IMG/VR virus record: IMGVR_UViG_3300022555_003222
Coordinates: 66,809-130,808 of that record
Source: a virus
Reading direction: 5' to 3' (one strand)
Length of the DNA stretch: 64,000 nt
Each line of letters opens with the position of its first letter. The first letter of the stretch is position 1. The notes beneath the pieces are model-generated. The model did no database searches and was not told where the DNA came from. It saw only the letters and a program-made list of their open reading frames with translations. The translations under genes and the position numbers were made by a program. Of the stretch, positions 22,040 through 52,615 are shown in pieces.

Positions 22040-22366
22040 GGTTTCGATTCCTTTGGGTTATGATTGGTTCTTGTTACACTGTTGGTTATACACCTGGACT
22101 AAGGTAGACTTCTCACGAATTCATACCCAACGTCGTTGATGACCAGGGTATAGCTGGGGTTGTCGTCGTGCTTGAACCACACTTCCCACTTGCCGGTGTC
22201 GATGTTTTCGACAATGGCTTCGTCGTTGTGGATACTGACTAGACGATAGCCAGCTTGTTCCAATGTTTCTCGTAATGGCATGGTTGGTTCTCCTGTGCCC
22301 TCAGTTATACATCTGGACTTGGGAGGAAAGACCTTCCCCTGCGAAGCAGGGGAAGGTCTATAGGTA

Positions 22367-22690
22367 TCAGACTCGGGCAGGTAGGCCCAGTTCGATCAGG
22401 GCTTCGGCATCCCAATTCTCGGGCATCTCGTTCTCGCACCGATAGGCATAGTCTTGGGCTGCTTCGTCGTTATCGTCGTAATAGCAAGCCACTTCGACAT
22501 ACGTTCCAAAGTCGTGGCTATTGCTCTTGATCTTCAATTGGGCCAAATCTGGCTCGGGGCCGAACTCACGCCGTAACTGGTTGATGAAGGCCCGGCACTC
22601 GGCCCTGGCCCGCTGGGGGTCATAGCTCGGTCCAAGCTGTTCGCAGTCCTCGGCTGCCGGGGTGCAACTCAGTTCCATGTAATCTCGCAT
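22367..22690 (-). CDS. Cassette hypothetical protein
   Basis: GGAG RBS, motif 22735; CTPAAEDC...NSHDFGTY. Confidence 0.8.
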   Translation of the reverse strand: MRDYMELSCTPAAEDCEQLGPSYDPQRARAECRAFINQLRREFGPEPDLAQLKIKSNSHDFGTYVEVACYYDDNDEAAQDYAYRCENEMPENWDAEALIELGLPARV

Positions 22691-23111
22691 GATCGTTCTC
22701 CGTTGTGGTTGGGTGTTGTCTCGTTACACTAGCACTTATACACCTGAACTGAAGATATATCCTGGTCTAGCATATATCCTCTGGCATGTATCCTGGTCTA
22801 GCAAGCTCCCATGATAAGCACTTCTTCGGCACCGTATACCTTATTGGCACCGCAAGCCTCGCACTCATAGCCACGGGCATCGGGTTCCACGCCTTGGGCT
22901 TCGGCACCGCAAGCCAAGCAAAAACCTACGTTATCATCGCTCTCGACCGCTTCCATCACACGCTCGATATTCAGTTTCATTGTTTCGTTCCTTGTGGTTA
23001 ATGACAAAGAGGACGCAGCTTGTACTTCGCTGCTTCACAACAAGGAAGATTGGGAGGGCTTGCCTCTTACTCTATTGTTGTGTCCTTGATGCTATTGGTT
23101 ATACAACCGGA

Positions 23112-23366
23112 CTAAGCCGCTTTTGCAAGCTGGGGCTTAGGCTGTCGCTGATGGTTCTTCAGCAGTATCGCTCGTATAGCTTGCTGCTCCAAGACGATAT
23201 GCTTCAGGACGCTCTCGACTCGGCCTGTTGCTACGGAAGTTCGCAGCAATTCTTTCAACTCGGCCAAGGTCACGATCTCGTTGTCGTACTGACGGGCTGC
23301 CAGTTCATCATCGCTATCGAACAGTTTGCCATCCGATGCTTTGATCTTAGATATACGCTGAATCAT
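23112..23366 (-). CDS. Cassette hypothetical protein
   Basis: AAGGAG RBS; TAG stop inside motif 23098; ends LAKAA. Confidence 0.75.
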   Translation of the reverse strand: MIQRISKIKASDGKLFDSDDELAARQYDNEIVTLAELKELLRTSVATGRVESVLKHIVLEQQAIRAILLKNHQRQPKPQLAKAA

Positions 23367-23563
23367 CTTTACTCCTTATGGGTCATTGCCTTAGCTGTTT
23401 GCTCGGCATCGGTCTTACTATTGGTAAAGTAATCGGCTTCTGGCATACGCTTACCATTAGCATCGTATGCTCTGACAATATATTCACCATCGTGCTTCTT
23501 GATGGTGGTACTCGTTATGTTTGTCATGGTTGGTTTCCTTGTGCCGGTAGTTATACACCTGCA

Positions 23564-23809
23564 CTAGAACGGTATTTCATCGGTGTTCGGTTTGGTCGGC
23601 TTGCCCGGAACGTCGTGTTCTAGGGACAGTTCCAGATCAGCCGTATCGTTTACATCTTCGGGATGGGGTACAGCAGGGCCGTTATAAAACGGGTTCCGTT
23701 CCCATGTATCGTAATCCGTCAGAATCCAGGCTCGATCAGGATGATCGGCTCCAACATTGGCCGCATACTCACGGCAGGCATCAGCAGGGGTAGCAAGTTG
23801 ATCGTACAT
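23564..23809 (-). CDS. Cassette hypothetical protein
   Basis: AGGAG RBS; WILTDYDTWERNPFY; stop inside motif 23550. Confidence 0.8.
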   Translation of the reverse strand: MYDQLATPADACREYAANVGADHPDRAWILTDYDTWERNPFYNGPAVPHPEDVNDTADLELSLEHDVPGKPTKPNTDEIPF

Positions 23810-27580: not shown

Positions 27581-27681
27581 GGTTTCATTCCTTGTGATTG
27601 GTTATCGTTACGCTCCTTGTTATACATCTGGACTAGAGAAGATAGCCCCACCCTGCTTCGCAGGGTGGGGCTTGTATAGAA

Positions 27682-28854: not shown

Positions 28855-29517
28855 TCTCCTTGATGATGTTGACTGTTGTTGATTGAAGTTATACACCTGG
28901 ACTAAGCTGCTTTTGCAAGGGCCAAAGCAACTTTATTGTCGAACCCGCAGGCCGTATAAAATCGGCTTCGGTCGAATCGGGGGTTGTCATAGCAAGCCAC
29001 GATCATGTCGTAGCAAGCCTGGGCTTGAACACGCTGGCCGCAGTTGACCAACTCACGGATATGCCGTGCAAACTCGACAAAGTATTTCTTACTCATGGTT
29101 GATTTCCTTTCACTTGCAGTTATACACCGGCACTATGCCGCTTTAACTGCCGATGGTTGCCCGTATCGCAGCCAGTTGGCCGCTTCGTCACGGGGAATGT
29201 CATACCAAATGTCGCCGCTGGTGATCTGGCACTTACGGGTGACTACATTCACCAGCACATACCAAGGGCCAACCGAATAAATATGGTTGTGGGGTTGGTA
29301 GGTATGAAACAACTTAGTTGCTTTCTTGCCAGTCATCGTTCGGTTCCTTGTGGTTGATTGTTGAACACCGGCAGTTATACACCTGCACTCAACAGGATAA
29401 AATCAGATACACGACGTACAGAACGCTTGCCATGAACACACAGTCCACGACGTATCGGTGTGGATAGGTTAGCCACTTACGCATGATTGCTCCAAAAAAG
29501 TGATGTTAGTTCCACAG

Positions 29518-29588
29518 TATCCCATGCGGGAATCGAACCCGCAGTTCCAGATTGAAGGTCTGGCGTCATTCCGTTAGACCAATGAGAC
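29518..29588 (-). tRNA. tRNA-Glu (UUC), atypical C33, no encoded CCA
   Basis: Acceptor GTCTCAT/ATGGGAT, D arm GTC..GAC, anticodon stem CCAGA/TCTGG with loop CCTTCAA, T arm GCGGG-TTCGATT-CCCGC. Confidence 0.85.
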
Positions 29589-29860
29589 ATAAACAGGCAT
29601 CCGGCCAAAGCCCACATTTTCAACCGCCCCTATTTTAGAACCCATTCAAGGGTGACAAGGTTAGTGGGGTGTCATCCACTGGCGGCACTTGTTTCGTGCC
29701 TCATGTTATACATCTGAACTCACTAGCATTAACAAAATAAACAAGAAGTTCCGCCGTTAATTATACATCTGAACTCTGATGCTTACCTAAACTACCCGTC
29801 CACCGTGTATTACTTAGTTCCTAGTTCTTAGATCGTAGTTCTTAGTCCCTAGTCTATAAA

Positions 29861-30112
29861 GAAAAAGCCCACCCCGGCAACGCCGGGGTGGGCAACAACA
29901 CAACCAACCACGATTGTAAGAAATTATTTCAAAGAGAAGGAGACCCTCCCTCCTGCACCGCAGGAGGGAGGGCAGACAACGCAACCAACGCAACCAACCG
30001 TCTCATTGTAAGAGTGCCCGGCAGTGAGAACCACCAACACTGCCGGGCTAGCAGCAACCAACCATCACACACTGTAAGAAACCCAGCACTGCTGGGTAGC
30101 TACCAACCACCG
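29861..30112 (-). ncRNA. Candidate structured RNA: four hairpins alternating with GGUUGGU elements, ending in a terminator
   Basis: Hairpins at 29867, 29944, 30016 and 30081; caaccaacc at 29901, 29991, 30055; tgtaaga three times. Confidence 0.4.
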
Positions 30113-30115
30113 TTT

Positions 30116-30550
30116 TTATTTGAATTGCTCGTCTCGCACCAAAACCGCCGCTAACTGTTCCTCTGTGTAACCAAGCCTCGTTGGTCTCGTTACCTGATAC
30201 GCATTGTTGTAGTCCTCCAACTGGACAGGCTCAACTTCACCAGGGTGCTTCTTCTGCCACTTGGCAAACAATGGCAACTGCATGTAATCATCCACGCCGT
30301 CCAGACACTCGGCATCATACCATCGTCCATCTATCTCAATGAACACATGGGAACTGTGTGCCTGATCGACATCCGTTTCCCAATAACCTACCATGCAAGG
30401 AAAATCCGCCAGGGCTTCCAAAACCTCATAGCCCCATTCCTCACAACAACCATTGTTGACCTCATACGCCGATCCACAATCAGCAATGAAATCGCCTGTG
30501 ATCCGTTCAAGGATCGTTTGTACTTCTGCCGTTATCATCATGTTCTCCAT
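30116..30550 (-). CDS. Cassette hypothetical protein
   Basis: VNNGCCEEW...HVFIEIDGRWYDAEC (Cys...His...Asp, transglutaminase/papain-like pattern). Confidence 0.75.
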   Translation of the reverse strand: MENMMITAEVQTILERITGDFIADCGSAYEVNNGCCEEWGYEVLEALADFPCMVGYWETDVDQAHSSHVFIEIDGRWYDAECLDGVDDYMQLPLFAKWQKKHPGEVEPVQLEDYNNAYQVTRPTRLGYTEEQLAAVLVRDEQFK

Positions 30551-30588
30551 TGCCTTCCCCTGCGAAGCAGGGGAAGGCTTGTTCCACA

Positions 30589-30876
30589 TTAAATGAACGG
30601 CAAGTATTGTTCATTAGCCATCACTTCCTTGAACTTCTTGCCCAAGGTATGACTGGCTTCATTTCGACCGTCGTAACGATACTCATCGCTACCACAATGG
30701 TTCAACCAAGCAACACACATCTTGGTGAACGTCTGTTGTAGTGTTCGATGGTCCATGTCTATTTCAGACATTAGGGCCTCGATACGGGTGTTAAACCCGT
30801 AAGTGTTCAAGTAGTTGCTGATCTGCCGGGCCATCGCTTCGGCATCTTGTTTCGCTTTCAATTCTGATTCGGTCAT
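30589..30876 (-). CDS. Cassette hypothetical protein
   Basis: AAGGA RBS; HRTLQQ...DGRNEAS. Confidence 0.8.
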   Translation of the reverse strand: MTESELKAKQDAEAMARQISNYLNTYGFNTRIEALMSEIDMDHRTLQQTFTKMCVAWLNHCGSDEYRYDGRNEASHTLGKKFKEVMANEQYLPFI

Positions 30877-31460
30877 GGTTGGTTTCCTTGTGGTCTAGCA
30901 TGTATCCTGGGCATACATCCCAGGGATATATCCTACGCTTGTTATACACCGGAACTCACGCTGCTACGCTGTGATGCTCTAGTATATCTAAGTCTATCCA
31001 TCGCTTCGCAGTCTCGATGGTCACTGCTCGCTCGGGCCATCGTTGACCAAGGGGGGTTGTGACATAAAAGCCATACGCCCCTTCTTTAATGATGTAACCT
31101 TTGTATCGCATCAGTAGTTCCTCCACTGTATGTTATACACCCGGACTCACCACTCTACTCGCACCCACCTGTCGGTCTTAATCCATAGGGTATAGTGGGG
31201 CATCAGTTGTCCCGGTTTGTGATCGAATGGACCACTAATAATACCAGGGTATATTGGATCGTTGCTTATTCCAACGTAGTACATATTCATTTGTTTGCCT
31301 CTCGTTCGTCGTGTATAGCTCCACACTTACACTTCCATAGCAAGTGTTCGACCTTCACCATTCGCACTAATCCGCTGCATCGCAAACAGTACGGACAGTA
31401 GTTCGGGTCTTTCTCAGCGTTAAGTTTCATTATGCTATCCATCTGAACCTCCACGCTTTG

Positions 31461-31682
31461 TTATACACCTGGACTGGATACAAGTTCCCACTGGCAACCG
31501 TATATGTTGAAACCATATTCTTCGGCCAGGGTCATCAAAACTTTTTCATCGTTGATAATGCCGGGAATAAACCATTGTGGGTCACGGGGAGCAACGTCAA
31601 TAGTACATTCGGTAGGCAGACCACAGGCATCCAAGGTTTCGCCTTCGGTATCCCATTCAATGTTAGTACAACGTACCTGCAT
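31461..31682 (-). CDS. Small protein, paralog of adjacent gene
   Basis: IEWDTEGETLDACGLP shared with 31682-31864; ends SPGV inside the motif. Confidence 0.75.
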   Translation of the reverse strand: MQVRCTNIEWDTEGETLDACGLPTECTIDVAPRDPQWFIPGIINDEKVLMTLAEEYGFNIYGCQWELVSSPGV

Positions 31683-31864
31683 TATTGCACCTCGTATGAA
31701 AAGCCGAACACACAATAACAGTATTGGTCGCTTAGGGCATCTGCCCCTTCCTCCTCAATGTCTATGTCGTCCTCAACTTCAAGAACACACTCGGACGGTA
31801 GACCACAAGCATCCAAGGTTTCGCCTTCGGTATCCCATTCAATGTCGAAAAACTTTACTCGCAT
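31682..31864 (-). CDS. Small acidic protein, paralog of adjacent gene
   Basis: IEWDTEGETLDACGLP; AAGGA RBS. Confidence 0.75.
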   Translation of the reverse strand: MRVKFFDIEWDTEGETLDACGLPSECVLEVEDDIDIEEEGADALSDQYCYCVFGFSYEVQ

Positions 31865-31927
31865 GGTTGGTTTCCTTTCAGGTGATCGTCCCGCCAAAGG
31901 CGGGACGATCATTGTTATACACCTGGA

Positions 31928-32329
31928 CTAATCTTCAATGTTGAACATCCCAGCCACCCCAAAGTGGTCATAGGTTTCTTGCAGTAGGGTCCGTAGTTCT
32001 TGTAGGGCAACGTCGTGAAGCTCCTGGGACTTGAAAGTGAACTCAGCCCAGATGTAGTACATTCCTTTGCCAGTCAATCGGATGCCCATGATAGCATAGG
32101 TTGCCATCACCCGTGTATCGTGATTAACGATACGGGCAAACTGTGTATTGGTTAGGTATTCTTGAACATGCCGATAACTAGGATCAGCATTAAGTTCATG
32201 TTTGAACTGTTCGATCAGTTGTTCCATAGGTGATTTGTCAGGATTAAGTGCCTGGGCAAACACCGTGTCATCGCCTTGCTCACGTTGGAACTTGACGGTG
32301 AACTTATGGGGGGTTGGATAATTTTCCAT
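31928..32329 (-). CDS. Cassette hypothetical protein
   Basis: Motif 32351 and RBS; stop inside motif 31914. Confidence 0.8.
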   Translation of the reverse strand: MENYPTPHKFTVKFQREQGDDTVFAQALNPDKSPMEQLIEQFKHELNADPSYRHVQEYLTNTQFARIVNHDTRVMATYAIMGIRLTGKGMYYIWAEFTFKSQELHDVALQELRTLLQETYDHFGVAGMFNIED

Positions 32330-32365
32330 GATTGGTTCCTTCTGCTGCTTGTTATACATCGGAAC

Positions 32366-32707
32366 TCAGCTAATCAATGCTGGCAGTTCCACTGTATATT
32401 CAGTTAGCTTGTGATGCTTGTAATTGACATAGCCCGGCTTATCAATGCAGGGGATGGTTTCAATGACGTTACCACTGGCATCGACTTCAAACCCATTAGG
32501 AATCAGGACAACAAAGCCATGAACTCGCTTTGCCCGTCGTTTGGCATGACCCATGCTTCGGTATTGCTTAACGCAACCCTTCACGTTGCCAAACATGGCA
32601 AAGTCACGCCAACGATTATCATTGCACAGACGGTATCTGCCATTTTCACTGATAATCAGAATCATGCCTTGGGACTGTCTGTTGCTACCCAATGTTTGAA
32701 TGTTCAT
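32366..32707 (-). CDS. Cassette hypothetical protein
   Basis: TGA overlaps motif 32351. Confidence 0.75.
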   Translation of the reverse strand: MNIQTLGSNRQSQGMILIISENGRYRLCNDNRWRDFAMFGNVKGCVKQYRSMGHAKRRAKRVHGFVVLIPNGFEVDASGNVIETIPCIDKPGYVNYKHHKLTEYTVELPALIS

Positions 32708-33116
32708 GTTACTGATCCTGTTCGGGGAACTCTGGAACGCCTGCCCATTCCAAAAGCAGAACGTCGCCCGGCTCGATATACTCCGCTAGTGATTGTAGCT
32801 CGGATATTTCACCGTAGCTGATACATTCAGCCTCAATCTCGCCACGCAGGTATTCCAGTCGCTCTTTGATTTTCTTCTTGGTCATGGTTGGTTTCCTTTG
32901 CTGTTGGTTATACACCCGGACTCACCCACACCCACCATTGTCCAGGGGTATAATCTTGCCGCACTCCTCACAACGATATACGTCGTTGCAAGCCTGCTTG
33001 CCGATCTTGATTAGTTTGCCGCCACATTCACACTTGACTTCCTTTTCAGTATCCGCATCCCTGCACTCACAGGTGCATAACATTAGATTGCCTTTTAAGT
33101 GGTTAATGAAAACAAG

Positions 33117-35201: not shown

Positions 35202-35210
35202 GGAATGTCC

Positions 35211-39779: not shown

Positions 39780-39787
39780 GGTTTGGT

Positions 39788-39910: not shown

Positions 39911-41840
39911 ATCTGGAATCTTTTCAATCAAATTAGGAAAAGTTTTCAAGTTCGTGGAATCCTTTCACTCGCATTTATTCTACAATTTCGCTTGCGAGGA
40001 AAGCATTTCAATGGAGTCACCCTGCGAAGCAGGGTGACTCTGTTCGCCTGCGTATGCGTGTTCAACATACCTGTGTCGAACACGGCGCAGGTACTAACCA
40101 CCCAGACAACTCTTATTACTAATTTGAATCAATCGTATGCCATATATCTGGCATTATTATTGATTGACGGAGCGCATTTGAGGTATTTTGGGTTCATTTC
40201 CCACCATTTAATCCCATTTTAATTAGGATTGTGGGCAGGATTCCCACAAAGTTGTTTGAATCTGCCTCCCCCGGCGTTGCCGGGGGAGGCTTATCAATGG
40301 TTTGTCAATGGTTTGTCAATGGCTGATCCATGTTTCATCAGTTATCAACGGGTTGTATCTTTAATCCAATGGTGGATAAAGATTGCTATTTTGTTCAACC
40401 TGGGACAACTTAATATACGGTTGCAGGGTTTATTAACTGCTTCGTAAGCTATGTTATACAGGGTGAACTGCCGTAATTTCCAGGGCCAGGGATATATCCT
40501 TAGTATGTATCCTGGGGATATATCCCGGTCGCATACACGGGTGGGATATATCCTAGCTTAATAACTTATTATTCACCATCAAGTTGCATATCTTCCCATT
40601 CATCACGGGTATAGACGACTTTCACGCCTCGTTTTGTTAGTTCGGCATCCAATTCATCGGCCAAGTCACGGGCAACATTCAGGTTCCTTTGTTCGGTTCC
40701 GTAGATGCCACCGATTGTGCCGTGGGATATTTCTACTTCAAGGTCGTAATGGTCATCAATCAACTGAACGGAAATGTAACAGACCTTTGGTAGTTCGTGG
40801 GGCCATGCTCGACCGATCCACTCACGAATACCGATAGTGTGTGTAAAACTCATTATAGCCACTCCACTTTAATAACGTATTCGTCGCCTTCGTAGGTTTC
40901 GACTTCGTTAAGGGTGTCGATTGATTCCCAAGTTTCGGAATAGACTTCTTCATCATCTTCGATGATCGTACAACCGGCATAATAATTTTGTTGCCCGCTG
41001 GACAATTCGATAATGACTCTTGCTCCGTTGTTGGCTTGAGCCTCAACGGAACGGTTGTCGTCGTAATAGGGTTTGGGATCGTCGTTGGTTTGCCGGTTGT
41101 TACTGGCATCCAGAACTTCAACGATTTTCCTATTGATACGGGCAGTCAGTTCGCCCTTATCGTTTCGTTCTTGGAAGTTTATGCCGACAAGTTTATGCCA
41201 GCATTTTGGTAGCTGAATGGTTACTGTGTTAGACATGGTTCTTTTTGGTTGGTGGTTGATTAGGGATGTATCCTGCGAAGCAGGATACATCCCTTGTTAT
41301 ACATCGGGACTTACTTTAGATTCCAGGGAATCCAATGTTTCGCATATTTCAGATCGGGATGCCGGTTATGGTTTTCATCCCATACTGGTTTACCGTCAAG
41401 GAACAGGGCAAGCAAAGCACCTTTGTCGCCATTGGATGCTGCTGCCCACACAACTTGCATAGCCATATCATCGCCGGTCAGTTGTGCATCGCCTTCTTTG
41501 CCATCATTGGCGGCATCATCAATCTTTTGGATACGGATAGTTTCATCCCTTGTATCTTGGAACAGGGACCATCCTTGTATCTTGGCTTGTCGGTCGTAAT
41601 GTTTCGTCCATTCGGCCAGGGTGATTTCGCTTTTGGGGTGGCTCATTTTGAATCGGTGACCTCCCAATCCTTGATTTCGGTATCGACAATATCGGCATTG
41701 TCGGTTTGGGAAGTAAAGTTATAGTCCATATTCTCTAGGACTTCGGTTACTTCTACATCTTCCTCGGCTTCGATAATAAGCCGGGTGGTGACATTGACAT
41801 AAATCTTACGGGACATGATTGGTTTCCTTTCTGCTTCTTG

Positions 41841-42284
41841 TTATACACCGGGACTGACGATGCTATTAACCAGTTTTTTAATTTCGTCATCACCCCCAGG
41901 AGGGGCAAAGATCAATGGTCTGCCGTGTGTGGTGGCATAATTGATTTCTTCATCTGTACCATCGGCGGGGATACCGGGTGGTGTTAGGACGATTACGAAG
42001 TCACTGGCACGGATTGCCGCATTATTGATTTCCTGCAAACGCTCATTCCATCGGCCTTGGATTGCTCGGTGGGGGCTATAAACTGCCACGCCTGCTTTGA
42101 CCAGGGCCACACGCACGGCATCCCGCCAGTGGGTGTATTCTTTATGTCGTGGGCTATCCCATTCATTCCACCAGACTTTAATTGGTCCTGCCAATATAAC
42201 GATTGGTGGAACTTTATCGGGGGAGGCATCGACTTGAACTGCACCGTTGCCTTCCTTTGCCAGCAGATCAACAAGGGTATTCAT
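41841..42284 (-). CDS. Nucleoside 2-deoxyribosyltransferase-like protein
   Basis: VILAGPI...VYSPH...IRASDFVIV...GTDEEINYA. Confidence 0.65.
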   Translation of the reverse strand: MNTLVDLLAKEGNGAVQVDASPDKVPPIVILAGPIKVWWNEWDSPRHKEYTHWRDAVRVALVKAGVAVYSPHRAIQGRWNERLQEINNAAIRASDFVIVLTPPGIPADGTDEEINYATTHGRPLIFAPPGGDDEIKKLVNSIVSPGV

Positions 42285-43548
42285 TTTAATTCCTTTTAGA
42301 TCGTTCCGCCTTTGGCGGAACGATCTTTGTTATACACCGGAACTGCGACGACTGGTTATTCACCATAAACTATAATCGCCCTTGTATAATCTTCCGACCA
42401 TACAAGTTCCACAAGCCGAAGTTTACACCGCAGCAAGGGTCACGAAAATCAGGAGTCGAACCTGATCTGCCAGTCTTGGACTACTCTGTTGATTTCAGGG
42501 GCAGCACTTCAAAATCTTGCCTTGGGGCATTGATTTTTTCTCGGAAGTGTTCTGCCCACTGGTTAGCCTCTGCCGCCGTGGCAAAGGGGCCATAGGCATC
42601 AAAATGATATTTGTCAATGACGATGAACATAATTACTCCGGTTGTTGCATGTTGAAGGGTAGGTATGCTTCCTGGCCGTCAACTTCCAACAGATCGCTAT
42701 CGACCGTTTCGCCATTTTCATCTTCGTAATCGCACCCGTCACCGGCAATAAAGTCTTGGTTGACGAACTTGCCTAGTTCGGTATCAAAGGTCTGGATAAC
42801 GAATCCAGTGGTGATTTTCTTGACTAGCATTTTGGTTCTCCTTGTGTTTCTTGTTATACACCTGGACTAGCCACGTTGTCTAGTTTGTCTGATGACTTTA
42901 CGAATGATCTTTTCTGCCGCTTCTTCGGGGGTCATATATTCATTACCCGCATAAGAATATGGCACGTTCCTTGTCACTCGCAGCACTTGGCAGATTTCTA
43001 CCGCAGCCGCTTTGATCGCTTCGTTGCCATCAAGTCTTTTTGGCACTTGTGACATTTGCTTTCTTTCGCTTTCAATGTCTTGTTATACACCGGGACTCAA
43101 TCCGGTTTATTAACCGGGTTATCCACGCTGGTCAGATACTCGCCGCTGACACCCGTTTTATGACCTTCGACAAACACCACTACTTCATCGCCTTCGTGCC
43201 TTGGTCCGTGATATTTCGTAACCGTGTAAATGCCAGGGTCCAGGGGGCAACGTGGGCTAGTGGGTGTAACCCTCTCGCCTATATCGAATACCTTGTACTG
43301 GACTTCGTAAATTACCTTTTCCCATCGCATGATTGTTTCTCCAAAAAAAATGAACAGAAGGGCTATAGGTCGGTATATCTTGCAATCTAACCCGGACATG
43401 CAAGACTCTTGGATGTTGTAAAATCCCTCGCCGCCCGTTGTACGGCACTACGGGAACCCCGCTCTAAGTTCTTCCCAAAAGGGAATCGAGGCTTCGCATA
43501 TCGACCATCCCAAGTAATGCCCTTCTGCTCAATGTTATACACCTGGAC

Positions 43549-44013
43549 TCAATAGACTTCGGCTAATGGCTTATCGCCAGTGAAGTCTACTTTGAATCGG
43601 AAACGGGTTGTCGCTTCTGCCGTACCATTTTCACGCAGATAGATAACGCAACTGGTGATATTTGGTTCTTGACTATCCCATTCCCAACCATCACCATCTT
43701 CAAACGTATCGGAGCCGAAGTCGTATTCGCAAAGCAACTGCTCGGCAGTCTGTCGTATGTAATCCCGCCGATCTTCCATCAGCTTAACACTGGCAGATAC
43801 AGGGTTTGGATCAGGCTTATAGCCTTCGCCGTAGGACTCCACAGGAAACCGCTTTGCCCTGCTGTTAGGCCGGGTTAGCTTCGCCGTCATGGTGAAAATG
43901 CCAAAACGATCACCACTAAGATGGTGAATAATCTTACCCTCCTCAAACAACTTCTTTTCCAAAGGGGTCAAGGTCAAAATGCCCTCGCCTTGTTCGTTGC
44001 TGCTGTAATTCAT
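43549..44013 (-). CDS. Cassette hypothetical protein
   Basis: TGA overlaps motif 43534; ATGA overlap upstream. Confidence 0.75.
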   Translation of the reverse strand: MNYSSNEQGEGILTLTPLEKKLFEEGKIIHHLSGDRFGIFTMTAKLTRPNSRAKRFPVESYGEGYKPDPNPVSASVKLMEDRRDYIRQTAEQLLCEYDFGSDTFEDGDGWEWDSQEPNITSCVIYLRENGTAEATTRFRFKVDFTGDKPLAEVY

Positions 44014-44191
44014 TTGTCATCTTTCCAATCAGGGGGCAGGGTGACTCGATCATTAGCCATCCTGACGTTATCGGTGATGTATGTCTGACCCTCGGCTTTC
44101 AGACACTCGTACAGAATGTCAAACGCTTCCAGGGGCAGACCGTGTTCGTCCTGTAATGCCAGGACCGCAAAATCGTGTAGTTCTTGGCCGC

Positions 44192-44680
44192 TCATTCGTC
44201 ATCTTCCTCCGTAGTGATGTTATACACCTGAACTAACCCGTTCAACTCCTCGGTATAGCCAGTTAGTTCAAGGGTTTCTGACTGCAATTGTTCTTTCAAC
44301 TTAGTCAACTCTTGTTCCTTGGTAAGAATCCTGCTTCGCAAGTGCTTGACTTGCGCCTTTATCAGCAATTCAGGATGCAAGGCCGCATATTCAGTCCACG
44401 CCGTAGTAACCGCTTCCTTCATGGCACGAATTGCCACTGGGGTAGGTTCGGGGGTACGCTGCATTTGATTTCGACTGACATAGCAATCATAGGATTGCTT
44501 CGTTTGCCACACTCCATCTACCAAATACAGATGAAGATGGACATAGTAAAAGTTGCCACGATAGACCAACTGCTGTTCGGGCTTGCCGTGATCGCCAGTT
44601 GACAGGGAAACATGGTCGCCCTGGGTAATCGCATACCCGATATTGCCAAGTCTGGTTGTGATGTTGCCTTCGATAAACAT
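44192..44680 (-). CDS. Cassette hypothetical protein with coiled-coil C-terminus
   Basis: Start MFIEG; reads through an internal motif copy at 44219. Confidence 0.75.
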   Translation of the reverse strand: MFIEGNITTRLGNIGYAITQGDHVSLSTGDHGKPEQQLVYRGNFYYVHLHLYLVDGVWQTKQSYDCYVSRNQMQRTPEPTPVAIRAMKEAVTTAWTEYAALHPELLIKAQVKHLRSRILTKEQELTKLKEQLQSETLELTGYTEELNGLVQVYNITTEEDDE

Positions 44681-44955
44681 GATAGTTCCTTGGGGTTGGA
44701 TCGTTCCGCCTTCGGCGGAACGATCCTTGTTATACACCGGGACTTAGGTTGATTCCCAGGTGGATTCAACGCACTCGTCACCTTCGTATTCGGTCAGATT
44801 ATCTTCGCTGCCGTCAACGTCAAAGTCACGCACAACGATCTGTATATCTTCGGGAATATCGCAGATGTTTTGAATGACACCACCTTCGACAACAACTGTA
44901 ATGACTCGCTTTTCCATGATTGGTTTCCTTTCTGTTCCTTGTTATACACCTGGAC

Positions 44956-45504
44956 TCACTTGGCATCCCAGCATTGTTGATCTAAGATGCCATTGTGAAT
45001 GTCGGGCCGATATTCTTTCAGCCACGCCATCGCTGAATCTTTGTCTACATGGCACTCAAATCCTATGCCTTCTTTTGCTTCAACATAGTTGAACAACTGG
45101 GAAACTTTTTCGTCACTGTCGGCAACATATTCGGCCACAACATCGGCCTCATAATCGCCGCCCCAATCGTAGTTTGCCAGGGCCATGATTTCGTCATAGT
45201 TTGCCTGTTGGAACCAGGGCAAGGCATCAAAATCGACTTCATAAACACAATCGTCACTATGAACTTCTGCCTTAATGACAACTGTTTTCTCTCCTGGATT
45301 GAAATGATTGACGTATGCCTGGGCCATTTCTTGGCTAGGCAAATCAATATCTACCTGATCGAACTTAACGCCTTGGTCAGTCAATTCCTTCCAACCGTGT
45401 GGGTAGGGATGTTCTGCACCACGATAGTCTTTGGCATCAACGCAACCCACGATCTTGAAGTTGCTAAGGGCAACGATGATACTGCTGGATACTTGTTTAC
45501 TCAT
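44956..45504 (-). CDS. Cassette hypothetical protein
   Basis: Start MSKQV; DWGGDYEAD..GFECHVD; TGA overlaps motif 44941. Confidence 0.75.
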   Translation of the reverse strand: MSKQVSSSIIVALSNFKIVGCVDAKDYRGAEHPYPHGWKELTDQGVKFDQVDIDLPSQEMAQAYVNHFNPGEKTVVIKAEVHSDDCVYEVDFDALPWFQQANYDEIMALANYDWGGDYEADVVAEYVADSDEKVSQLFNYVEAKEGIGFECHVDKDSAMAWLKEYRPDIHNGILDQQCWDAK

Positions 45505-46454
45505 GGCCTTACCACTTCCCTTGTTTGATAAATGGTTGTAAATTAACCAACTGGTCAACGTGATCGTCTAGTTGACGACAATAATACGAATCGGATATAA
45601 TCCCTTCCGTATGATTGCATTTATGCCCTTCCATTGATCCAGTTAAAGCAATCAACTGCATCAGAGGAGTGGGTTGTCGCCAACGTGAGTCTTTGTTGTT
45701 CATGGTTATACACCGGGACTAACAGAAAAAGTAATGTATATCTTCGTCTTGATCGTACATCCAGCAAACACCGTAGTTTTCCCCAAAGGATATATCCTGT
45801 TTATCCAGTAGGTGCTGTAACGATTCGGGAACCACGCACTTCTCGCAAAACTCTTGTCGGGTAATTTCGGTGGCTTCGCCGTTTTCTTCGTCCACCATTT
45901 GTTCTAGCATGGTTGCATCGGACGCAACTCTGTCTAGGAAATCTTCGTTATCCAGACAATCAATGCAATTACAAATATAGTAGTACATGGTTTTAATTGG
46001 GGGTTAGGTGGACGGTTCAAAGTCAAAGATTTCGATGTTATCATCATCGCAATCTACGTTAGCAAGCAGATCGGCAAGGCTGACGAACAGATTGCCTTCC
46101 TGCAAGTCTTTGGTCAATTGCTTGGCATCCATTTGGCTAACGTCGATGATCTTGCCGTCATTATCAGTGGCCTTGGTCAATTCGACTCCACGCATCCAAC
46201 CAGAAAAACACAGATCAATCTTGGGCATTTTAGTTTCCTTTGTCAACAGTGGTAATTTCTTCCAACAGATCGGCCACGGGTTCTTTCAGTAGGACTGCCA
46301 GAAACTCGGCCACACCTTCGCTGAATCCTTCCAAGAAGTCGCTGGACAATTCCCAGGCATCTTCATCCCGGTCAATAATGACTTGCTTGGCTTGTTCGAT
46401 CAACTGGATACGTTTCATTGTGATTCCCTTTCGATCCTTGTTATACACCCGGAC

Positions 46455-46931
46455 TCACTTACGCAGGCCCAGGCCAATGCTGGTGAACTCGGTCAATACG
46501 TCCTGCTTGTCCAAGGTTTTGTCGGCAAGCAACTTGTCCAACTTAGCCAAAGTTGCATTTTTGTTGCCGTAGACCTTCAACAGTTCTTCTCGGAACAGAT
46601 TGTCGCCGCCTTTGAACTCATACCGACCACGCTCAATTGCTTCACCGAAACTCTCAAAATCGACGGGTTTCGGCAGAGGCAACTCCATTACAAGTTGCTT
46701 GGCAAAACGGGTTTCGGATTGCAGTTTTTGACCCTTGGAAGGTTGCATATCGTCGCCCTCCCAACAGGTGACCCACTGATCTTCGGGCAGAATAATATCC
46801 AGACTGCCCTCGTACATTACATCAGCATTGGACGGACGACACTGGATGGTCAACCGCTTCCCGCCATCAAATTCAAGTACAACATCGCAATCGTGCTTGG
46901 GCACTTTGATTACTTTTTCAGTGAACTTCAT
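46455..46931 (-). CDS. Cassette hypothetical protein
   Basis: Motif 46956, AAGGA RBS; stop in motif 46440. Confidence 0.78.
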   Translation of the reverse strand: MKFTEKVIKVPKHDCDVVLEFDGGKRLTIQCRPSNADVMYEGSLDIILPEDQWVTCWEGDDMQPSKGQKLQSETRFAKQLVMELPLPKPVDFESFGEAIERGRYEFKGGDNLFREELLKVYGNKNATLAKLDKLLADKTLDKQDVLTEFTSIGLGLRK

Positions 46932-47962
46932 AGTTCTTTCCTTCGGTTGGTTATGATTATACACCTGAACTTACAGGTGATCTTCGTCATCTGGAATATC
47001 CAGCTTGATACCCTTATCGTAGGGACTGTAAACGGCTCCTACATCTTGTTCAAGATATGAACCGTCGATGCCGACCATTGCGCCGGTATCCAGCTTACGA
47101 ATTTCGATTTCCACTTCGCCGCCCGTATCGGGATCGGTGACAGTGATGCACTTGACAAACTTCGTATTGATCTTTGACATGGTTTCTTTCCTTTCAATGA
47201 CCACACTTGGGGCAATAGCCCGGCCATTCCTCTTGGGATGTTTCCTCGCCGCATTTTGGACAACCCATTACGTTCTCGATTTCAACGGGATCGCAGATGG
47301 TATCAATAGTTTCCCATTCGTTGCCCATTTCGCTAACACCATCGCCGTTCTTGAATTTGAACTCGGCCTTGGCTTTAGCTTCATCAGGGGTATCGGCATC
47401 CACGATAAACGTGCATTGGCCTTTGTAAATGACTGGTACTTCGTATTGCATGATTTCTGTTATACACCGGGACTCGGCGCACATTCCTTGCAGTAGGGTG
47501 ATTCGTCTACGATTACAGAACAATCAGGACAAACATGCTTGCCACATCCGGTACAAACATCATATTCCCTTACGTCGGGAAGGTCTGATGTTGACTCAAA
47601 AATTACGGTTACTCCGCAATCTGCACAGTGTTCTAGGTCCATTATGACACACCTTCCATCTTGCACAGTTCATCAGCACGTTCATCGGCAACAGTATAAC
47701 ACCATTCCCATGAATCGGACTGTTCGACCTTGCCATCAAAAGATGCCAGCAAACCCTTTGCCAATAATTTCTTGGCAAAAGGGACGGTGCAAATACCGTT
47801 AAAGTCGCCATCTTCGGTTGTCAATCGAGCAAATGAATACTTACGCATGATTTTCCTTTTTGTTTCCAACATCACCCCCGCTACGAGCGGGGGTGATGTT
47901 TATTCCTGTTGGGCAACAGGCTAATGATTCATGTCTCTGGTTATACACCTGGACTCACTTGC

Positions 47963-48352
47963 TTAGTATTGCAAGTAGTCATCTTTATTTTCGACATACT
48001 TGCCTTTCTTGGCCTTGATCCACACGACAATCTTACTGGTCAATTTTTCCAAGTGACGTTCGTACTCTTGTCTGTTATGGGCCACACGAAGTTCCTCAAT
48101 AGTACGACTGATGCCAACGGGCAGATCAGACCTTTGCAAGAAGGTGCAAGCACTTTGGACAGCACCACCTTTCATTCGCACACTATCGCCGTCATTGTAA
48201 TAACGGTAATAAATCTTGCTCACAGCCCGAAGAATCTCACCTTCGTGAGTATCGGCAGGACCGCTATCGGGCACAAGGTTTTTCAGCTTATCGTAGGCAG
48301 TCTGATGTTTGCCCTGACTGTTCCAATAAGTCTTTTGAACTTTTGTTTTCAT
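47963..48352 (-). CDS. Cassette hypothetical protein
   Basis: AGGAG RBS; GEILRAVSKIYYRYYNDGD. Confidence 0.8.
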   Translation of the reverse strand: MKTKVQKTYWNSQGKHQTAYDKLKNLVPDSGPADTHEGEILRAVSKIYYRYYNDGDSVRMKGGAVQSACTFLQRSDLPVGISRTIEELRVAHNRQEYERHLEKLTSKIVVWIKAKKGKYVENKDDYLQY

Positions 48353-48763
48353 TATTGAATCTCCTGTTGCCTCTTGTTATACACCGGGACTCACTTACTT
48401 GTGAATCAAGTAAATGGTGGGTTGTGGTTCCGGTGGTTTGGTGTAATACTTGGCAGTTACCAATTCTTCGTTATCCGTTCCCACTTCCAAAACCACTCGG
48501 CATACTGCCAAGGACTCTTTGGGAATCTCTTGCAACCACTCCAATAGTTGTAGACCGTTCATGTTATGCCGCCTCCATTTCAACGTGACTTGCACCATTT
48601 TGGACAATTTCAATATGGCCCAAAATCTGCAATCGGGCCAAAGCACGATCATAGGTCGTTTTGTTTTCACACACCCACACAGTTGGGGTGGGATTTTCAA
48701 AAGACCTATTCAAAAAAGTAATTGTAAGACAGGCATTAAACGGATGGACTTCAATTACTCGGT

Positions 48764-49195
48764 TCATGTTGACACCTTTTCCAACTCGGCACAATGCTTG
48801 TACCATGCTTGGGTTTCCAACGCATCTTGGGTTCCCACCGCAAGACCGACCTGGGAAATCCAGGCTTTTGGAGCATGAAGGTACGCCACTTCAACGTGGC
48901 TGGGAAAGTCGTAATGATCTTCGGCATCGGCCTGGGTACAACCCATAATGCCACGATAGCCACAGACATACGCCGAACGGTATTCATCTTCAATTTCGCT
49001 ACCGCTGATAATGGGCAGCTTTGTGCCGGATGCTCGGACCAAAGCATTAAGACGATCTTCGACGTATTCGCACTCAAGATCAAAACTCTCAACCGCAACC
49101 GCCAATTCAACGAACTGGGATCGCATAGTATCTCGCAACTCCTTCAAACTAAAATTTGAAGCTGAACGCAAATTCAAAACTGCTGCAAGGGACAT
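48764..49195 (-). CDS. Cassette hypothetical protein
   Basis: Motif 49222 and AAGGA RBS. Confidence 0.75.
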   Translation of the reverse strand: MSLAAVLNLRSASNFSLKELRDTMRSQFVELAVAVESFDLECEYVEDRLNALVRASGTKLPIISGSEIEDEYRSAYVCGYRGIMGCTQADAEDHYDFPSHVEVAYLHAPKAWISQVGLAVGTQDALETQAWYKHCAELEKVST

Positions 49196-49222
49196 AATTG
49201 GTTTCCTTTCTGATGCCGATTG

Positions 49223-49702
49223 TTATACAACCGGACTCGGCTTAATTCGTCTGCCCAATGGGACTGAATAGGCCCAATGATATTTTGTATTGTCGTCACA
49301 ATCGCCCAGATACTCGGCCACAACGTCAATGATGTTGTCGCTTTTCTTAGTGGGACCGGCATAAATCTTTGCCAGGATTTTTCTTTCTTTGACAATCACA
49401 CAACCATGTTCGATCTTGCCGTGTTCACCATGATGATGAAAAGTATGAAGCATGATACCATTGTTGGCATCGGCATACTTTTTGGCAATCTGCCGAATGT
49501 AATCGGGAATGTCACTAAACCAACTGTAAAGATCGTAATGCTGGCCGGATTCGCTTTCACTGATCGACCTTACCACGCCGCTGAATTGCGCTGCGCCCAT
49601 CGCAGCACAGGATGAAACGTCTACACAGTGTCTATCAAATTCACGATGTCCGGTATGAATATCCAATTTCATACCCTTCTTAACATATACTTTTTGTCGC
49701 AT
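49223..49702 (-). CDS. Cassette hypothetical protein
   Basis: Start MRQKV; ends SPVV in motif 49222. Confidence 0.7.
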   Translation of the reverse strand: MRQKVYVKKGMKLDIHTGHREFDRHCVDVSSCAAMGAAQFSGVVRSISESESGQHYDLYSWFSDIPDYIRQIAKKYADANNGIMLHTFHHHGEHGKIEHGCVIVKERKILAKIYAGPTKKSDNIIDVVAEYLGDCDDNTKYHWAYSVPLGRRIKPSPVV

Positions 49703-49703
49703 G

Positions 49704-50003
49704 TTAGTATCCCATTGTATCGTTGTATGCCTCAACACCACCCATCATGCCAGCCTGCATGGCAATTTCCCGCTTCCAATCGTCGTCGGATGTATCCTGG
49801 TCAGGCACAAAGTCGGGATTCTTCCGGTATTCTTCGTGATCGGGACCGACCAGGGAAACATACATGGTGCTAGTGTGGTAATACTCGTCCACAGGTGCAT
49901 TGAAGGCAACTAATGCCTCCTCCAAGGTTTCATAGTCCGATCCAGTCCAACAATCGTCGTTTCCTTCGTTGGGATGACTGCCCCAATAGTTGACTTCAAA
50001 CAT
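49704..50003 (-). CDS. Cassette hypothetical protein
   Basis: WGSHPNEGNDDCWTG; motif 50027 and RBS. Confidence 0.8.
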   Translation of the reverse strand: MFEVNYWGSHPNEGNDDCWTGSDYETLEEALVAFNAPVDEYYHTSTMYVSLVGPDHEEYRKNPDFVPDQDTSDDDWKREIAMQAGMMGGVEAYNDTMGY

Positions 50004-50421
50004 GATTGGTTTCCTTTCTGCCTTGTGTTATACACCGGCACTCAACAGATGGTTTTGTAGCAGAATGTCAACTGCCTGAATAGGATTGGGTGGGGCATCC
50101 ATGTCGGACATGGCAACCAGGGTTCTTATCAAATTGTCCCTCGCCTTTGTTCCCAATCGGGGATACGACTTGCCAGTACGAAGAACGTACTCGCAGGATA
50201 TATCTCGTCGCCAATTGTTGTATTCAGGATTGTCCACTATGATTTTCCTTGTCGGGGATTACCGTGTGTACCAGTCGCATCAGACCAGATATACAATTCG
50301 CCGTCACTGTAATAAACAGCACCGCACTTGTTGCACACTAATCGAATACGGTGGGCAAACACGCCCTTGTTGATTTCGCCCTTACAATCTTTTACCTTGC
50401 AAGGGAATGGTAATTTTGGTT

Positions 50422-50733
50422 TCATGCTTTGTAAAATCCTAATGCCCAGGCATACAACATTTGAAAGTAATAACCGTGCTTTTCGCACAATGTACGCAAT
50501 TCTGTATCCGCCTTCCATCCATCTTCGCCGTAGTTCAGACAGACGTATAGTGGACTCTCCTCGATGATAAGAACACCACCCACAGCATGATCGCCGTAAG
50601 GTTCGCCCCGTTCCCTCCATGCCTTCATGGTGTACCACTTGGAATGGTCTTTACCATATTTCCGTTTGATCCACCTATTGATGGCATCCCGCAAAACGGC
50701 AGGAGCAGTTGGCTTGTTAAGAATCTTTGTCAT
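50422..50733 (-). CDS. Cassette hypothetical protein
   Basis: Motif 50755 and GGAGG RBS. Confidence 0.78.
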   Translation of the reverse strand: MTKILNKPTAPAVLRDAINRWIKRKYGKDHSKWYTMKAWRERGEPYGDHAVGGVLIIEESPLYVCLNYGEDGWKADTELRTLCEKHGYYFQMLYAWALGFYKA

Positions 50734-51860
50734 GGTTCATTTCCTCCGCTGATGGTTATACACCGGGACTAACCGAATATAATCTTTTCAGCTTTCTTGA
50801 TTTCCCGTTGATTGCCCTCGACCTCTACGCCAGTATGTCCGACATAGATGGAAGTGCAAGGCTTGGCTTTAATCCCTGCTGATCGCAATTGAATCAGGGC
50901 CATTTTCTGACCCTTGCCACCCTCGGTCGCTTTCAAAATAGAAAAGACTTGAAGCACAGTAATTCCTTTCGCATGGTTATACATCGGGACTAGATACGAT
51001 TAGTTCTTGGGGTCAAGTCTAATGGTTTCAAGCCTGGGTTACATAGGGACAAGATTTCAACGTCCAAAGCATCGTACTCGTCCAACAGTTCTCTTTGTCG
51101 CTTCGCAATTTCCGCTATGCGAGGCGATTCGTATTCCCTATCAGTTGGCAGACTCAAGCCACGTTCAGACCTTAGCCGCCACGCCATTTCGTTAGAAATT
51201 GCCATTGACGTACTCCAATAATTGTTCGTATGGTTTGCCATCCTTAATCATCTTCACAAGAATGGCATCTTCAATCAACAATGCTGGCATAACGCTGGTT
51301 TCCCCGGCAAGTTGATTGATTGTAATTTCCCAAGATTTCATGGTATTGCCTTTCGCTTAGTCGTCGCCGTAGGTGGTTTTGATTTCGGCAGGGGTCAATT
51401 CGGTTAGCCCTTCGATATTCACTTCAACGCTTTGGATACCGCAGGGATCGCCTTCGGATTCATTATCCCAATCGACCTGTAGTGCTTCGTTCAGGTACTC
51501 TTTCAGTTCCTCAACGGTGACTTGTCCTGCAAGTTCGCCACGTTGTTCATTGGCAACCGCTTCATCTTCGTCTATTGCTACCAAAAAAGTAGCTTTGAAC
51601 GCTCGTAACGCCATGATAGTTTCCTTTCAATACAAATCGGCTCGAAGGTTTTCGGCAACAGTACGCAGATCATTAGGATCAATCTGTTCGTCTGAAACCT
51701 CTGTGTCGTAAGGTAGATTTTCGCCTGCTTCTGCCGCTTCGTCAATGACAACGGCCAGTGAATTAACTACGGCACGAACACCGTGCTTTTTCACCAAATC
51801 AATCAAAATTTCAAAATTCATCATTTCCTCTGCTGGTTGTTATACACCGGGACTAAAGAT

Positions 51861-52256
51861 TCATTCAAAATCTTCCGGTCTGGATTCATCTGCACAGCTA
51901 TTCAGCTTGCCGGATGTATCCCGAAAGTAAATGTCAAAATCTTCACCACACTCACGACTGAATTGCCGGTAGGCATCGTCGGCATTACGACAATCTTCTG
52001 CCGGGGCATAGCCGATTTCCTTGTTGGTTCCAGCCTTGGTAAACACCCAACCCCTCGGCTTCCGCCTCTTAGTCTTGGCATCACACCGACACTTGTTAGC
52101 AAATAGACCAACACTGGTTTCACCATGCTGGTCAGCAAATGCCAAAGCCGCTTCTTGACTAACACAACTTCGGGCCTTGCTCCACTCTACCCAAGTTCCA
52201 TTAGAACTAAGGTAAAGACCCTCTAGGCCACACTTACGGATTCTATATCGCACCAT
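51861..52256 (-). CDS. Cassette hypothetical protein
   Basis: Motif 52280 and AAGGA RBS. Confidence 0.72.
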   Translation of the reverse strand: MVRYRIRKCGLEGLYLSSNGTWVEWSKARSCVSQEAALAFADQHGETSVGLFANKCRCDAKTKRRKPRGWVFTKAGTNKEIGYAPAEDCRNADDAYRQFSRECGEDFDIYFRDTSGKLNSCADESRPEDFE

Positions 52257-52294
52257 GATTGTTCCTTTCAATGTTCCTTGTTATACGCCGGAAC

Positions 52295-52615
52295 TCAAGT
52301 GTATTTCAGCAACTCAGTTTCCATCTTTGCCAATTCAGTTTTGGCACGTTCGATCTTGCCTTGCAATTCCTTGGCAATCACTTCGGGAGCAATCGCTTTG
52401 AACCTGAATGTATTGCCCATGCCGGTAGTGATCGTGATAACACCATCTTTCTTGGTGATCCGCTTTTTGATGAAGGTCACCGATTGGCCGCACTCTGGAC
52501 TAAACCAGTTGTCGCCGTCAGTCAAATGGATTTCTCCACGTTCGCCAATAATATCGGCAAATTCCTCTTGATCGCCCTGGACTTCAAACAGTCTGGCCTT
52601 GATTACTCGGTGCAT
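52295..52615 (-). CDS. Cassette hypothetical protein
   Basis: GAGGAGG RBS; TGA overlaps motif 52280. Confidence 0.78.
   Translation of the reverse strand: MHRVIKARLFEVQGDQEEFADIIGERGEIHLTDGDNWFSPECGQSVTFIKKRITKKDGVITITTGMGNTFRFKAIAPEVIAKELQGKIERAKTELAKMETELLKYT

Follow-up and report, generated by a model that had tools for sequence, protein, structure and literature searches.

The window analyzed here is the last 64 kb of the 130,808-bp IMG/VR virus record IMGVR_UViG_3300022555_003222 (64,000 nucleotides; coordinates are those of the window unless another sequence is named). It contains an array of small genes in which a short repeated motif supplies the stop codons of the genes upstream of it. 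Genes that arrive at the motif in frame run to its TAA and gain a four-residue tail, and genes that arrive out of frame nearly always stop on a codon that straddles its first three bases, AGT. The motif probably forms the core of a promoter-leader cassette specific to this phage, within an array of small genes packed as densely as possible, and its repeats probably serve as recombination substrates as well. The overall appearance is that of extreme genome packing combined with gene-cassette shuffling, with no new mechanism.

Copies and Conservation of the Motif

With up to three mismatches, AGTCCAGGTGTATAA has 70 matches in the window, 68 on the minus strand (20072-52979) and two on the plus strand. 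Shuffled sequence gives a mean of 1.37 matches and a maximum of 7. The exact form AGTNCNGNTGTATAAC occurs 54 times in the whole record, always on the reverse strand and always inside the same 33 kb, while its backwards-read control occurs 0 times. A chance origin of the pattern is ruled out by the shuffles (maximum 7 versus 70) and by the stop-base controls described below.

Counted over 70 copies, motif positions A1, G2, T3, C5, G7, T9, G10, T11, A12, T13, A14, A15, and C16 are invariant or nearly so, and positions 4, 6, and 8 are variable. Weaker conservation is observed 5' of AGT, with W (A or T) at -10 in 62/70 copies (G once), A at -9 in 41/70, and Y (C or T) at -2 in 64/70 (T in 45/70). 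These three preferences are found in every class of copy, including the 34 copies abutted by no gene. Nothing is conserved from -13 to -40. Because this conservation extends past AGT, in the 5' direction, into coding tails that are unrelated to one another, the element overlaps coding sequence and AGT does not form a sharp 5' edge.

In 28 of 55 junctions, 18-27 nt separate the end of the motif from the ATG; in 14 others the distance is 36-51 nt. The intervening leader has an AAGGAA-type Shine-Dalgarno (SD) sequence that is separate from the motif. In a self-comparison of the DNA, the repeated unit is about 40-65 nt long and is made up of the motif, the leader, and the ATG. The longer leaders often carry a strong stem of about 13 bp that begins directly after TATAAC; 8 leaders are equipped in this way. 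At about 9 junctions, a GC-rich terminator-like hairpin of the CCCTGCGAAGCAGGGTGGGGC family lies between the stop codon and the next motif, at an offset of 46-50 nt, but most copies have neither such a hairpin nor a leader stem. Neighboring copies agree at the variable motif positions in 114/207 comparisons (89.3 +/- 6.0 when shuffled), and only 1 of 5000 shuffles is as high.

The array also includes a tRNA-Glu gene (anticodon TTC) that is headed by a tandem pair of motifs. A strong terminator hairpin (29867-29893) is located upstream of this pair. The position of the pair between a terminator and a tRNA gene speaks against a purely translational signal.

Several other arrangements of the motif and leader are observed. 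In five units, a leader stem-loop family (GATCGTnCCGCC...GGCGGnACGATC, plus one variant) begins 3-4 nt past TATAAC, and these stem-loops could be 5' mRNA stabilizers or attenuators. Motif and leader are duplicated in tandem at 39788-39915 and 21465-21640, where a 60-nt unit is repeated at 98.5% identity and a 75-nt unit is present three times. At the 3' end of the array (20008-20086), two motif-like copies are inverted (AGTGCAGATGTATAG on each strand) around a hairpin with a 13-bp stem, followed by an A/T-rich tract.

Table 1. Coordinates of the array, its motifs, and the genes discussed in the text.
Feature	Position in window	Strand	Description
Motif array	20072-52979	-	About 70 same-strand copies of AGTnCnGnTGTATAA(C), each heading a short leader with SD and ATG; about 110 small open reading frames
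TAG-T class example	22086-22281	-	Gene 22099-22281 stops on T plus AG of motif 22086-22100
TAG-T class gene	23551-23809	-	Gene 23564-23809 (81 amino acids, phrog_36991)
TGA-GT class example	44942-45504	-	Gene 44956-45504 (182 amino acids) stops on TG plus A of motif 44942-44956
In-frame read-through gene	41841-42284	-	147 amino acids; ends ...LVNSI/VSPGV and stop in motif 41841-41855
Adjacent paralogue pair	31461-31864	-	31461-31682 ends WELVSSPGV and stop; 31682-31864 ends YEVQ and stop
Exception gene	44192-44680	-	Third frame through motif 44220-44234; stop on TGA of ATGA overlap
Tandem motifs and tRNA-Glu	29517-29775	-	Motifs 29761-29775 and 29706-29720; tRNA-Glu 29517-29588
GC-rich terminator-like hairpin example	27644-27672	-	Family CCCTGCGAAGCAGGGTGGGGC, between stop and next motif
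Leader stem-loops	44698-44729, 42299-42329, 37577-37608, 31884-31914, 41262-41296		Five units
Absent unit	47951-48386	-	Leader, gene 47963-48352, and spacer; between motifs 47941-47955 and 48377-48391
Breakpoint motif	38545-38559	-	5' edge is a variant breakpoint; X11 loose ends at 38559

Stop Codons Supplied by the Motif

Genes were taken from a crude gene call of 113 minus-strand open reading frames (ORFs), and the stops were counted mechanically over frames that are open for at least 165 nt and reach a motif. Arrivals one base out of frame stop as TAG-T in 12 of 13 cases, and of the 15 that arrive two bases out, 14 end on TGA-GT or TAA-GT. In total, 26/28 out-of-frame long ORFs stop on a codon straddling AGT, and 3 of these 26 are doubtful genes (20520, 33393, and 20086). 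The initial annotation of this DNA had named nine genes that stop on the AGT of the motif (22099, 23112, 28902, 31928, 34032, 42867, 43549, 46455, and 52295), and all nine are present in the gene call.

The same annotation had listed nine genes that read through to the TAA of the motif (23833, 31461, 36938, 37609, 38545, 41841, 47460, 49223, and 50028). Each of these was recovered, and 20880-21056 is added as a tenth. All 10 in-frame arrivals end at the motif TAA with S[PA][GV]V, that is, SPGV, SAGV, or SPVV. An eleventh in-frame ORF (29375-29476, 33 amino acids) is doubtful. The sole clear exception to the pattern passes through a motif copy and stops 40 nt further on (Table 1).

About 36 of the 70 junctions have no spacer between gene and motif. 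Frames that reach the motif without a long ORF serve as the control; these have T at -1 in 9/57 cases (expected frequency 0.229) and TG or TA in 10/55 (expected 0.129). The stop-forming bases are present only where a gene arrives and are otherwise at chance. T at -1, or TG/TA, as a part of the motif itself is ruled out by these controls. The Y at -2 does belong to the element, so the motif contributes to the TGA and TAA stops.

Measured back from the motif, 12 stops are at offset 1, 14 at offset 2, 0 at offsets 3-4, 11 at offsets 5-11, and 16 at offsets 15-50. The cluster at 46-50 is occupied by the conserved GC-rich hairpin. A comparison of these distances with a compaction-only null had been proposed as a check. 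A single geometric fit expects 7.0 stops at offsets 1-2, versus the 26 observed (P = 3.7e-10), and 6.1 at offsets 3-4, versus none (P = 0.0016). Simple deletion-driven compaction alone, with one-parameter geometric spacing, is rejected by this excess and gap. Gene junctions that contain no motif are just as tight (19/25 have 2 nt or less from stop to start, and 9 are ATGA overlaps); therefore, tight packing is general in the array.

Homologues, Tails, and Native C-Termini

An alignment of the read-through proteins with homologues was the other check proposed, and in these comparisons similarity ends before SPGV. The 147-amino-acid protein (41841-42284) has a weak nucleoside 2-deoxyribosyltransferase-like match and 79 database relatives. 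In an alignment of 38 sequences, chosen among the near-full-length matches of this protein, 0/37 homologues end in SPGV. Conservation ends at ...LVNSI and is followed by individual short tails. The 49223 protein has a single relative, and the alignment stops at residue 136 of 159.

Only one pair of paralogues occurs in the array, and it bears out an earlier remark that one twin ends in YEVQ and the other in WELV-SSPGV. The two proteins are 40% identical and align as far as WEL/YEV, after which one continues with VSSPGV and the other with Q. The gene that ends in YEVQ stops on a TAA of its own that shares bases with the following ATG, while the stop of its twin is the TAA of motif 31461-31475. 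Judged from these alignments, the SPGV-type tails are motif-encoded add-ons and are not homologous to the ends of related proteins.

An 80%-identical orthologue of the 147-amino-acid protein is found on the metagenome contig L117, where it ends in ...ISVI/FPVH. The FPVH and the stop are encoded by a different repeat of that contig, TTTTCCTGTACATTA(A/G), which is present in 5 copies on one strand and 2-3 on the other, 6-16 nt before start codons. A second, unrelated ORF on L117 likewise ends in FPVH. With an orthologue and an unrelated ORF both ending on the contig's own repeat, motif-encoded protein ends recur with another motif.

Two of the contigs with a homologue of this gene have further features. 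On L117 (690-735), the first motif copy directly follows an apparent tRNA 3' end (T-arm, acceptor stem, and CCA). On the IMG/VR contig L116 (4030-4045), the homologue of the 41841-42284 gene has an in-frame TAG at the conserved Gln of the family (GAVQVD), and this phage may read TAG as Gln. The intergenic repeats of L116 differ again and are TTAACAnCTGTTAACA and GGGTTTTTAC.

Genes that stop on AGT were compared with their relatives in two cases. An alignment of the 182-amino-acid protein (44956-45504) with its relative P0083 places the two C-termini at the same position. The 81-amino-acid protein (23564-23809) has 722 relatives, and 6 of the best 150 align to the last residue of both proteins. 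These genes keep native C-termini (2/2 tested) and end as their homologues do, so their ends were neither truncated nor replaced at the joints.

Variation between Related Genomes

Contigs L116-L120 have only the 41859-42284 gene in common with this genome, as does L138, which is cut off at the contig end. On L117-L120, similarity begins at the ATG (42284) and is lost at 41859, four bases short of the motif. The region 30000-49999 was also compared with contigs from four runs, each of a different study. Joints whose shorter side has fewer than 30 letters were disregarded, and cross-matches are possible because the cassettes resemble each other.

On one contig of run X11, exactly one unit is missing, that between motifs 47941-47955 and 48377-48391; its flanks are joined within the motif sequence (8 letters in common; 150 letters on the shorter side). 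On another X11 contig, 413 nt are swapped for 1021 other letters. Contigs of X3 and X5 join position 38559, the 5' edge of its motif, to 43359 through 13 other letters. Among the 24 loose ends listed, 13 are found between -45 and +6 relative to a motif edge (9.1% of bases) and 8 between -14 and +6 (3.7% of bases). Related genomes differ by whole units at copies of the motif. An exchange inside the motif keeps a gene end tied to the 5' part of its own motif; it moves units and cannot create butt joints.

These results bear on the initial annotation, which had seen in the direct joining of gene ends a crossover or insertion point rather than a free-standing promoter. The first half of that claim has support, as the tails are motif-encoded and the units differ and break at motifs. 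The second half is not supported, given the fixed spacing to SD and ATG, the motif-headed tRNA gene, the conservation upstream of AGT, the native C-termini, and the equally tight junctions without a motif. Since breaks at the motif and promoter-like features are both present, crossover versus promoter is a false choice.

Nature of the Motif

The motif occurs in one orientation, ahead of nearly every unit, and at a fixed distance from the SD and ATG. We infer that it is a transcription-type signal with promoter activity. A promoter of about 26 nt would consist of W at -10, A at -9, and Y at -2, followed by AGTnCnGnTGTATAAC. After it would come a leader of 18-27 nt with a Shine-Dalgarno sequence, and then the ATG. 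This cassette would head each transcription unit of the 33-kb array of small accessory genes.

In such an array, genes on one transcript would be packed so that the stop of one overlaps the start of the next. Where a promoter intervenes, the upstream coding sequence would run into its weakly constrained 5' part and end at whatever stop the strongly constrained part permits. An in-frame arrival would reach the invariant TAA and add Ser, Pro or Ala, Gly or Val, and Val. An arrival one base out would place a T before the invariant AG, and an arrival two bases out would be stopped by the T favored at -2, followed by a purine and the invariant A.

The repeated cassettes would in addition act as patches of homology where units of one gene are gained, lost, or exchanged between related phages, as in the promoter-early stem-loop (PeSL) cassettes of T4-type phages. 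A gene with its stop on or before the motif would remain intact wherever it lands. Zero spacing may have been reached by deletion, by slippage that collapsed TAG-AGT, TAA-AGT, and TGA-AGT to the overlapped forms, or by selection; deletion and slippage as routes are conjectural.

Several observations weigh against this explanation. A scan with the sigma-70 consensus returns 25 sites versus 23.8 expected, none of them at the motif. Conservation is also absent at -35, and C takes the place of the final T in the -10-like box (TATAAC). A sigma-70 promoter, as defined by the consensus, is ruled out by these three results. No RNA polymerase or sigma factor was found in the 130-kb record, which is about 26% complete, and none of the 15 listed runs that contain the stretch is an RNA run. 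With the single geometric model rejected (26 vs. 7.0; 0 vs. 6.1), compaction needs an extra assumption, either slippage or selection. The few bases saved per gene seem a weak selective force in a genome of several hundred kb. The variant evidence comes from low-depth short-read contigs, and 54 further loose ends and 11 joints lie outside those listed.

Domain searches were made for the proteins that might act on the motif. The RNA polymerase family PF00940 has no match in the fragment, though the control search matched no genome either. The tyrosine and serine recombinase families (PF00589 and PF00239) have no match in the 130,808-bp record, of which completeness is about 26%; their controls matched 14 and 12 of 14 genomes. 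The DNA from -12 to +20 around 70 copies has a mean folding energy of -1.75 kcal/mol, versus -1.30 kcal/mol when shuffled. An attC-like structure is ruled out because there is no hairpin-forming inverted repeat.

The genomes scanned for the same array are fragments or distant relatives of the lineage. A scan of IMG/VR with AGTCCNGGTGTATAAC gives 22 loci with one match each, and no relative with the same array is among them. A scan of prokaryote genomes for the motif gives at least 120 loci, again with one match each and no array. The large phage genome LR756511.1 has 4 matches to GNTGTATAAC versus 1 for the backwards control, and in five large IMG/VR capsid relatives the motif matches no better than its control. 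Locus searches of IMG/VR with the 41844-42284 protein and with P0083 returned nothing.

Alternative Explanations

The motif could instead be a dedicated site-specific crossover or insertion site, similar to integron attC, where a recombinase inserts cassettes at the 5' edge and any promoter role is secondary or absent. Such a site would fit the single-gene modules (five contigs have only the 41859-42284 gene in common), the variant breakpoints exactly at motif edges (e.g., 38559, 31147, and 31475), the same gene butt-joined to different motifs on different contigs, and the rejection of a single geometric spacing model. However, the motif core has no inverted repeat (-1.75 vs. -1.30 shuffled), conservation reaches 10 nt past the supposed edge into unrelated coding tails, the spacing to SD and ATG is fixed, and the motif also stands ahead of a tRNA gene. 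The C-termini of the AGT-stop genes are native, and the cleanest joint of an indel is found within the motif, as expected of homologous exchange, and not at its edge. With no hairpin potential and no tyrosine or serine recombinase in 130 kb, which is only a fragment, a dedicated edge-acting enzyme is not supported, and this explanation is quite unlikely. Another account keeps the promoter but derives the butt joints from homologous or microhomology-mediated recombination between cassettes, as in PeSLs, and not from compaction. Unit-sized indel and replacement variants do break at cassettes, the repeated units of about 40-65 nt (motif, leader, and ATG) lose homology near AGT, and motif variants cluster between neighboring copies; there is also precedent in the portions of PMC2839356 and PMC4122927 covered here. 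This account is similarly improbable, as exchange inside the motif cannot make a new junction between gene end and motif, motif-free junctions are equally tight, and the joints are at native C-termini.

A role in RNA is very unlikely. The motif would then be a processing site, or it would couple upstream termination to the next initiation, with the stops placed accordingly. Its strand specificity and the single-base precision of stop placement are in keeping with this role, and most units are likely transcribed through from upstream because few junctions have terminator-like hairpins. Yet about half of the copies have no abutting ORF and still retain the motif and the upstream W, A, and Y, and one pair of copies heads a tRNA gene, where translation is irrelevant. 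The stop-to-motif position is not constant, as the read-through class stops 12 nt further on, and cleavage at the AGT edge would abolish the TAG-T and TRA-GT stops. It is also conceivable, though doubtful, that one element of about 26 nt is both promoter and exchange site, and that single genes without a stop move between motif "dialects" and are completed by the motif on which they land. If this were true, SPGV here and FPVH on L117 would be readable scars of gene traffic between phage lineages.

Comparison with Known Systems

PeSL cassettes of T4-type phages are the closest of the systems compared. PeSLs take up the gap between the stop of one gene and the ATG of the next, and modular shuffling proceeds through them (Arbiol, Comeau et al. 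2010, PMC2839356; Comeau et al. 2014, PMC4122927). They combine a sigma-70-like promoter, with -35 and -10 boxes, and a terminator or attenuator stem-loop, and are further characterized by measured promoter and terminator activity and by mini-circles. They begin with upstream stop codons in AT-rich regions, according to the Figure 2 legend of PMC2839356. Likewise, the cassettes described here lie between small ORFan genes of a variable region and span the upstream stop to the downstream ATG, some copies have terminator-like stem-loops, and the head, portal, terminase, and baseplate genes of the phage are distantly T4-like. Breaks between related genomes, by indel or replacement, also fall in cassettes (the X11 deletion, the 413 to 1021 nt replacement, and 13 of 24 listed loose ends, all in short-read contigs). 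In contrast to PeSLs, the motif is not sigma-70-like, lacks a -35, and has TATAAC as its -10-like box; it is a nearly invariant 15-16-mer whose copies, about 70 in number, lie on the same strand of one 33-kb array; and most copies have no stem-loop. Butt-joined ORFs that take their stop from the motif's own bases are not described for PeSLs in the portion of PMC2839356 considered.

Start-associated sequences (SAS) are found in Cluster K mycobacteriophages. They are 13 bp long, contain the SD core, lie 3-7 bp before the start codon, and have a proposed role in translation initiation (Pope et al. 2011, PMC3203893). The Figure 14 legend of PMC3203893 marks upstream termination codons within the repeat. 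Both SAS and the present motif are one-orientation repeats ahead of many non-structural genes of unrelated families. Unlike SAS, the motif ends 18-27 nt before the ATG, is apart from the SD, and also precedes a tRNA gene. Compared with these two analogues, and with no search made for an earlier description of the motif itself, this case is set apart by the non-sigma-70 motif, by its scale (a single array in a very large phage with about 70 copies), and by the butt-joining to a single base.

Integron attC sites are imperfect inverted repeats that fold into a hairpin. The tyrosine recombinase IntI is encoded adjacent to them, and the promoterless cassettes are read from one common promoter. Integrons and the present array are both one-orientation arrays of single-gene units, bounded by a repeated site and with ORFs packed up to that site. 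In contrast to integrons, the motif has no hairpin-forming inverted repeat, no integrase was found in the 130,808-bp record, and every unit has its own promoter-like motif, leader, and SD.

Promoters of T7/T3/SP6-type single-subunit RNA polymerases are contiguous conserved elements of about 20-26 nt, with a TATA stretch near the 3' end; they end at the transcription start and are repeated before many genes. The present element is also contiguous (-10 to +16, about 26 nt) with TATA near its 3' end, and related elements show "dialects", as between this motif and that of L117. It differs in that its upstream AT-rich positions are further from TATA than in T7. In operons, ATGA and TAATG overlaps allow an end signal to share bases with the next start signal. 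The same logic applies here, and 9 of the 25 motif-free junctions of this array are ATGA overlaps, but at the motif the partner signal would be a transcription-type motif and not a start codon.

Implications

The array is a clean, countable case in which what is probably a transcription-type signal shares bases with coding sequence. By itself, the finding reveals no new mechanism. Unrelated proteins gain the same four-residue tail; such shared C-termini among phage ORFans are not domains, which calls for caution in annotation. The tails vary with the local motif in orthologues (SPGV versus FPVH) and therefore could mark the array in which a gene currently resides.

If the motif is the core of a promoter-leader cassette, transcripts are predicted to start after each TATAAC. 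The polymerase that would read it, or a cognate sigma factor, is predicted to be encoded in the three quarters of the genome that the record lacks. Indels of cassettes, and possibly circles, are predicted to form at the motif.

The Phage Record and the Flanks of the Array

The record has a CheckV completeness of about 26%. Outside the window, it encodes a T4-like major head protein, prohead protease, portal, large terminase, baseplate wedge proteins, and primase. The closest named relative by capsid protein is the uncultured phage LR756511.1 (69.9% identity), and the size of that genome (595,163 bp) indicates that the record is a piece of a very large phage. The stretch is present in freshwater and lake metagenomes from several studies. 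Among the array proteins, 3/88 small proteins have a Pfam match above the family cut-off, and 3/51 have a PHROG match.

The array, at about 20-53 kb, has a G+C content of 46-57%, and its flanks are at about 40%. Along the array, G+C declines steadily from 57% at 20-22 kb to about 45% at 50-52 kb, with the remaining phage at about 40%. Over 20000-53000, the motif variants shift in parallel, from AGTGCAG... to AGTCCAGG... and next to AGTCCCGG.... The G+C gradient and the motif variants changing in step suggest blocks that differ in age or origin.

The flanks of the window encode ClpP, Hsp20, ribosome recycling factor, a UvrD-like helicase, and two TnpB-like ORFs. The ClpP-like, Hsp20-like, and ribosome-recycling-factor-like proteins are encoded at 4201-4809, 2637-3146, and 14840-15343, respectively. 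The TnpB-like ORFs (60762-61940 and 62888-64000) have OrfB_IS605 and Cas12f1-like TNB domains. A 403-amino-acid ORF is antisense to the first of these, at 60762-61940.

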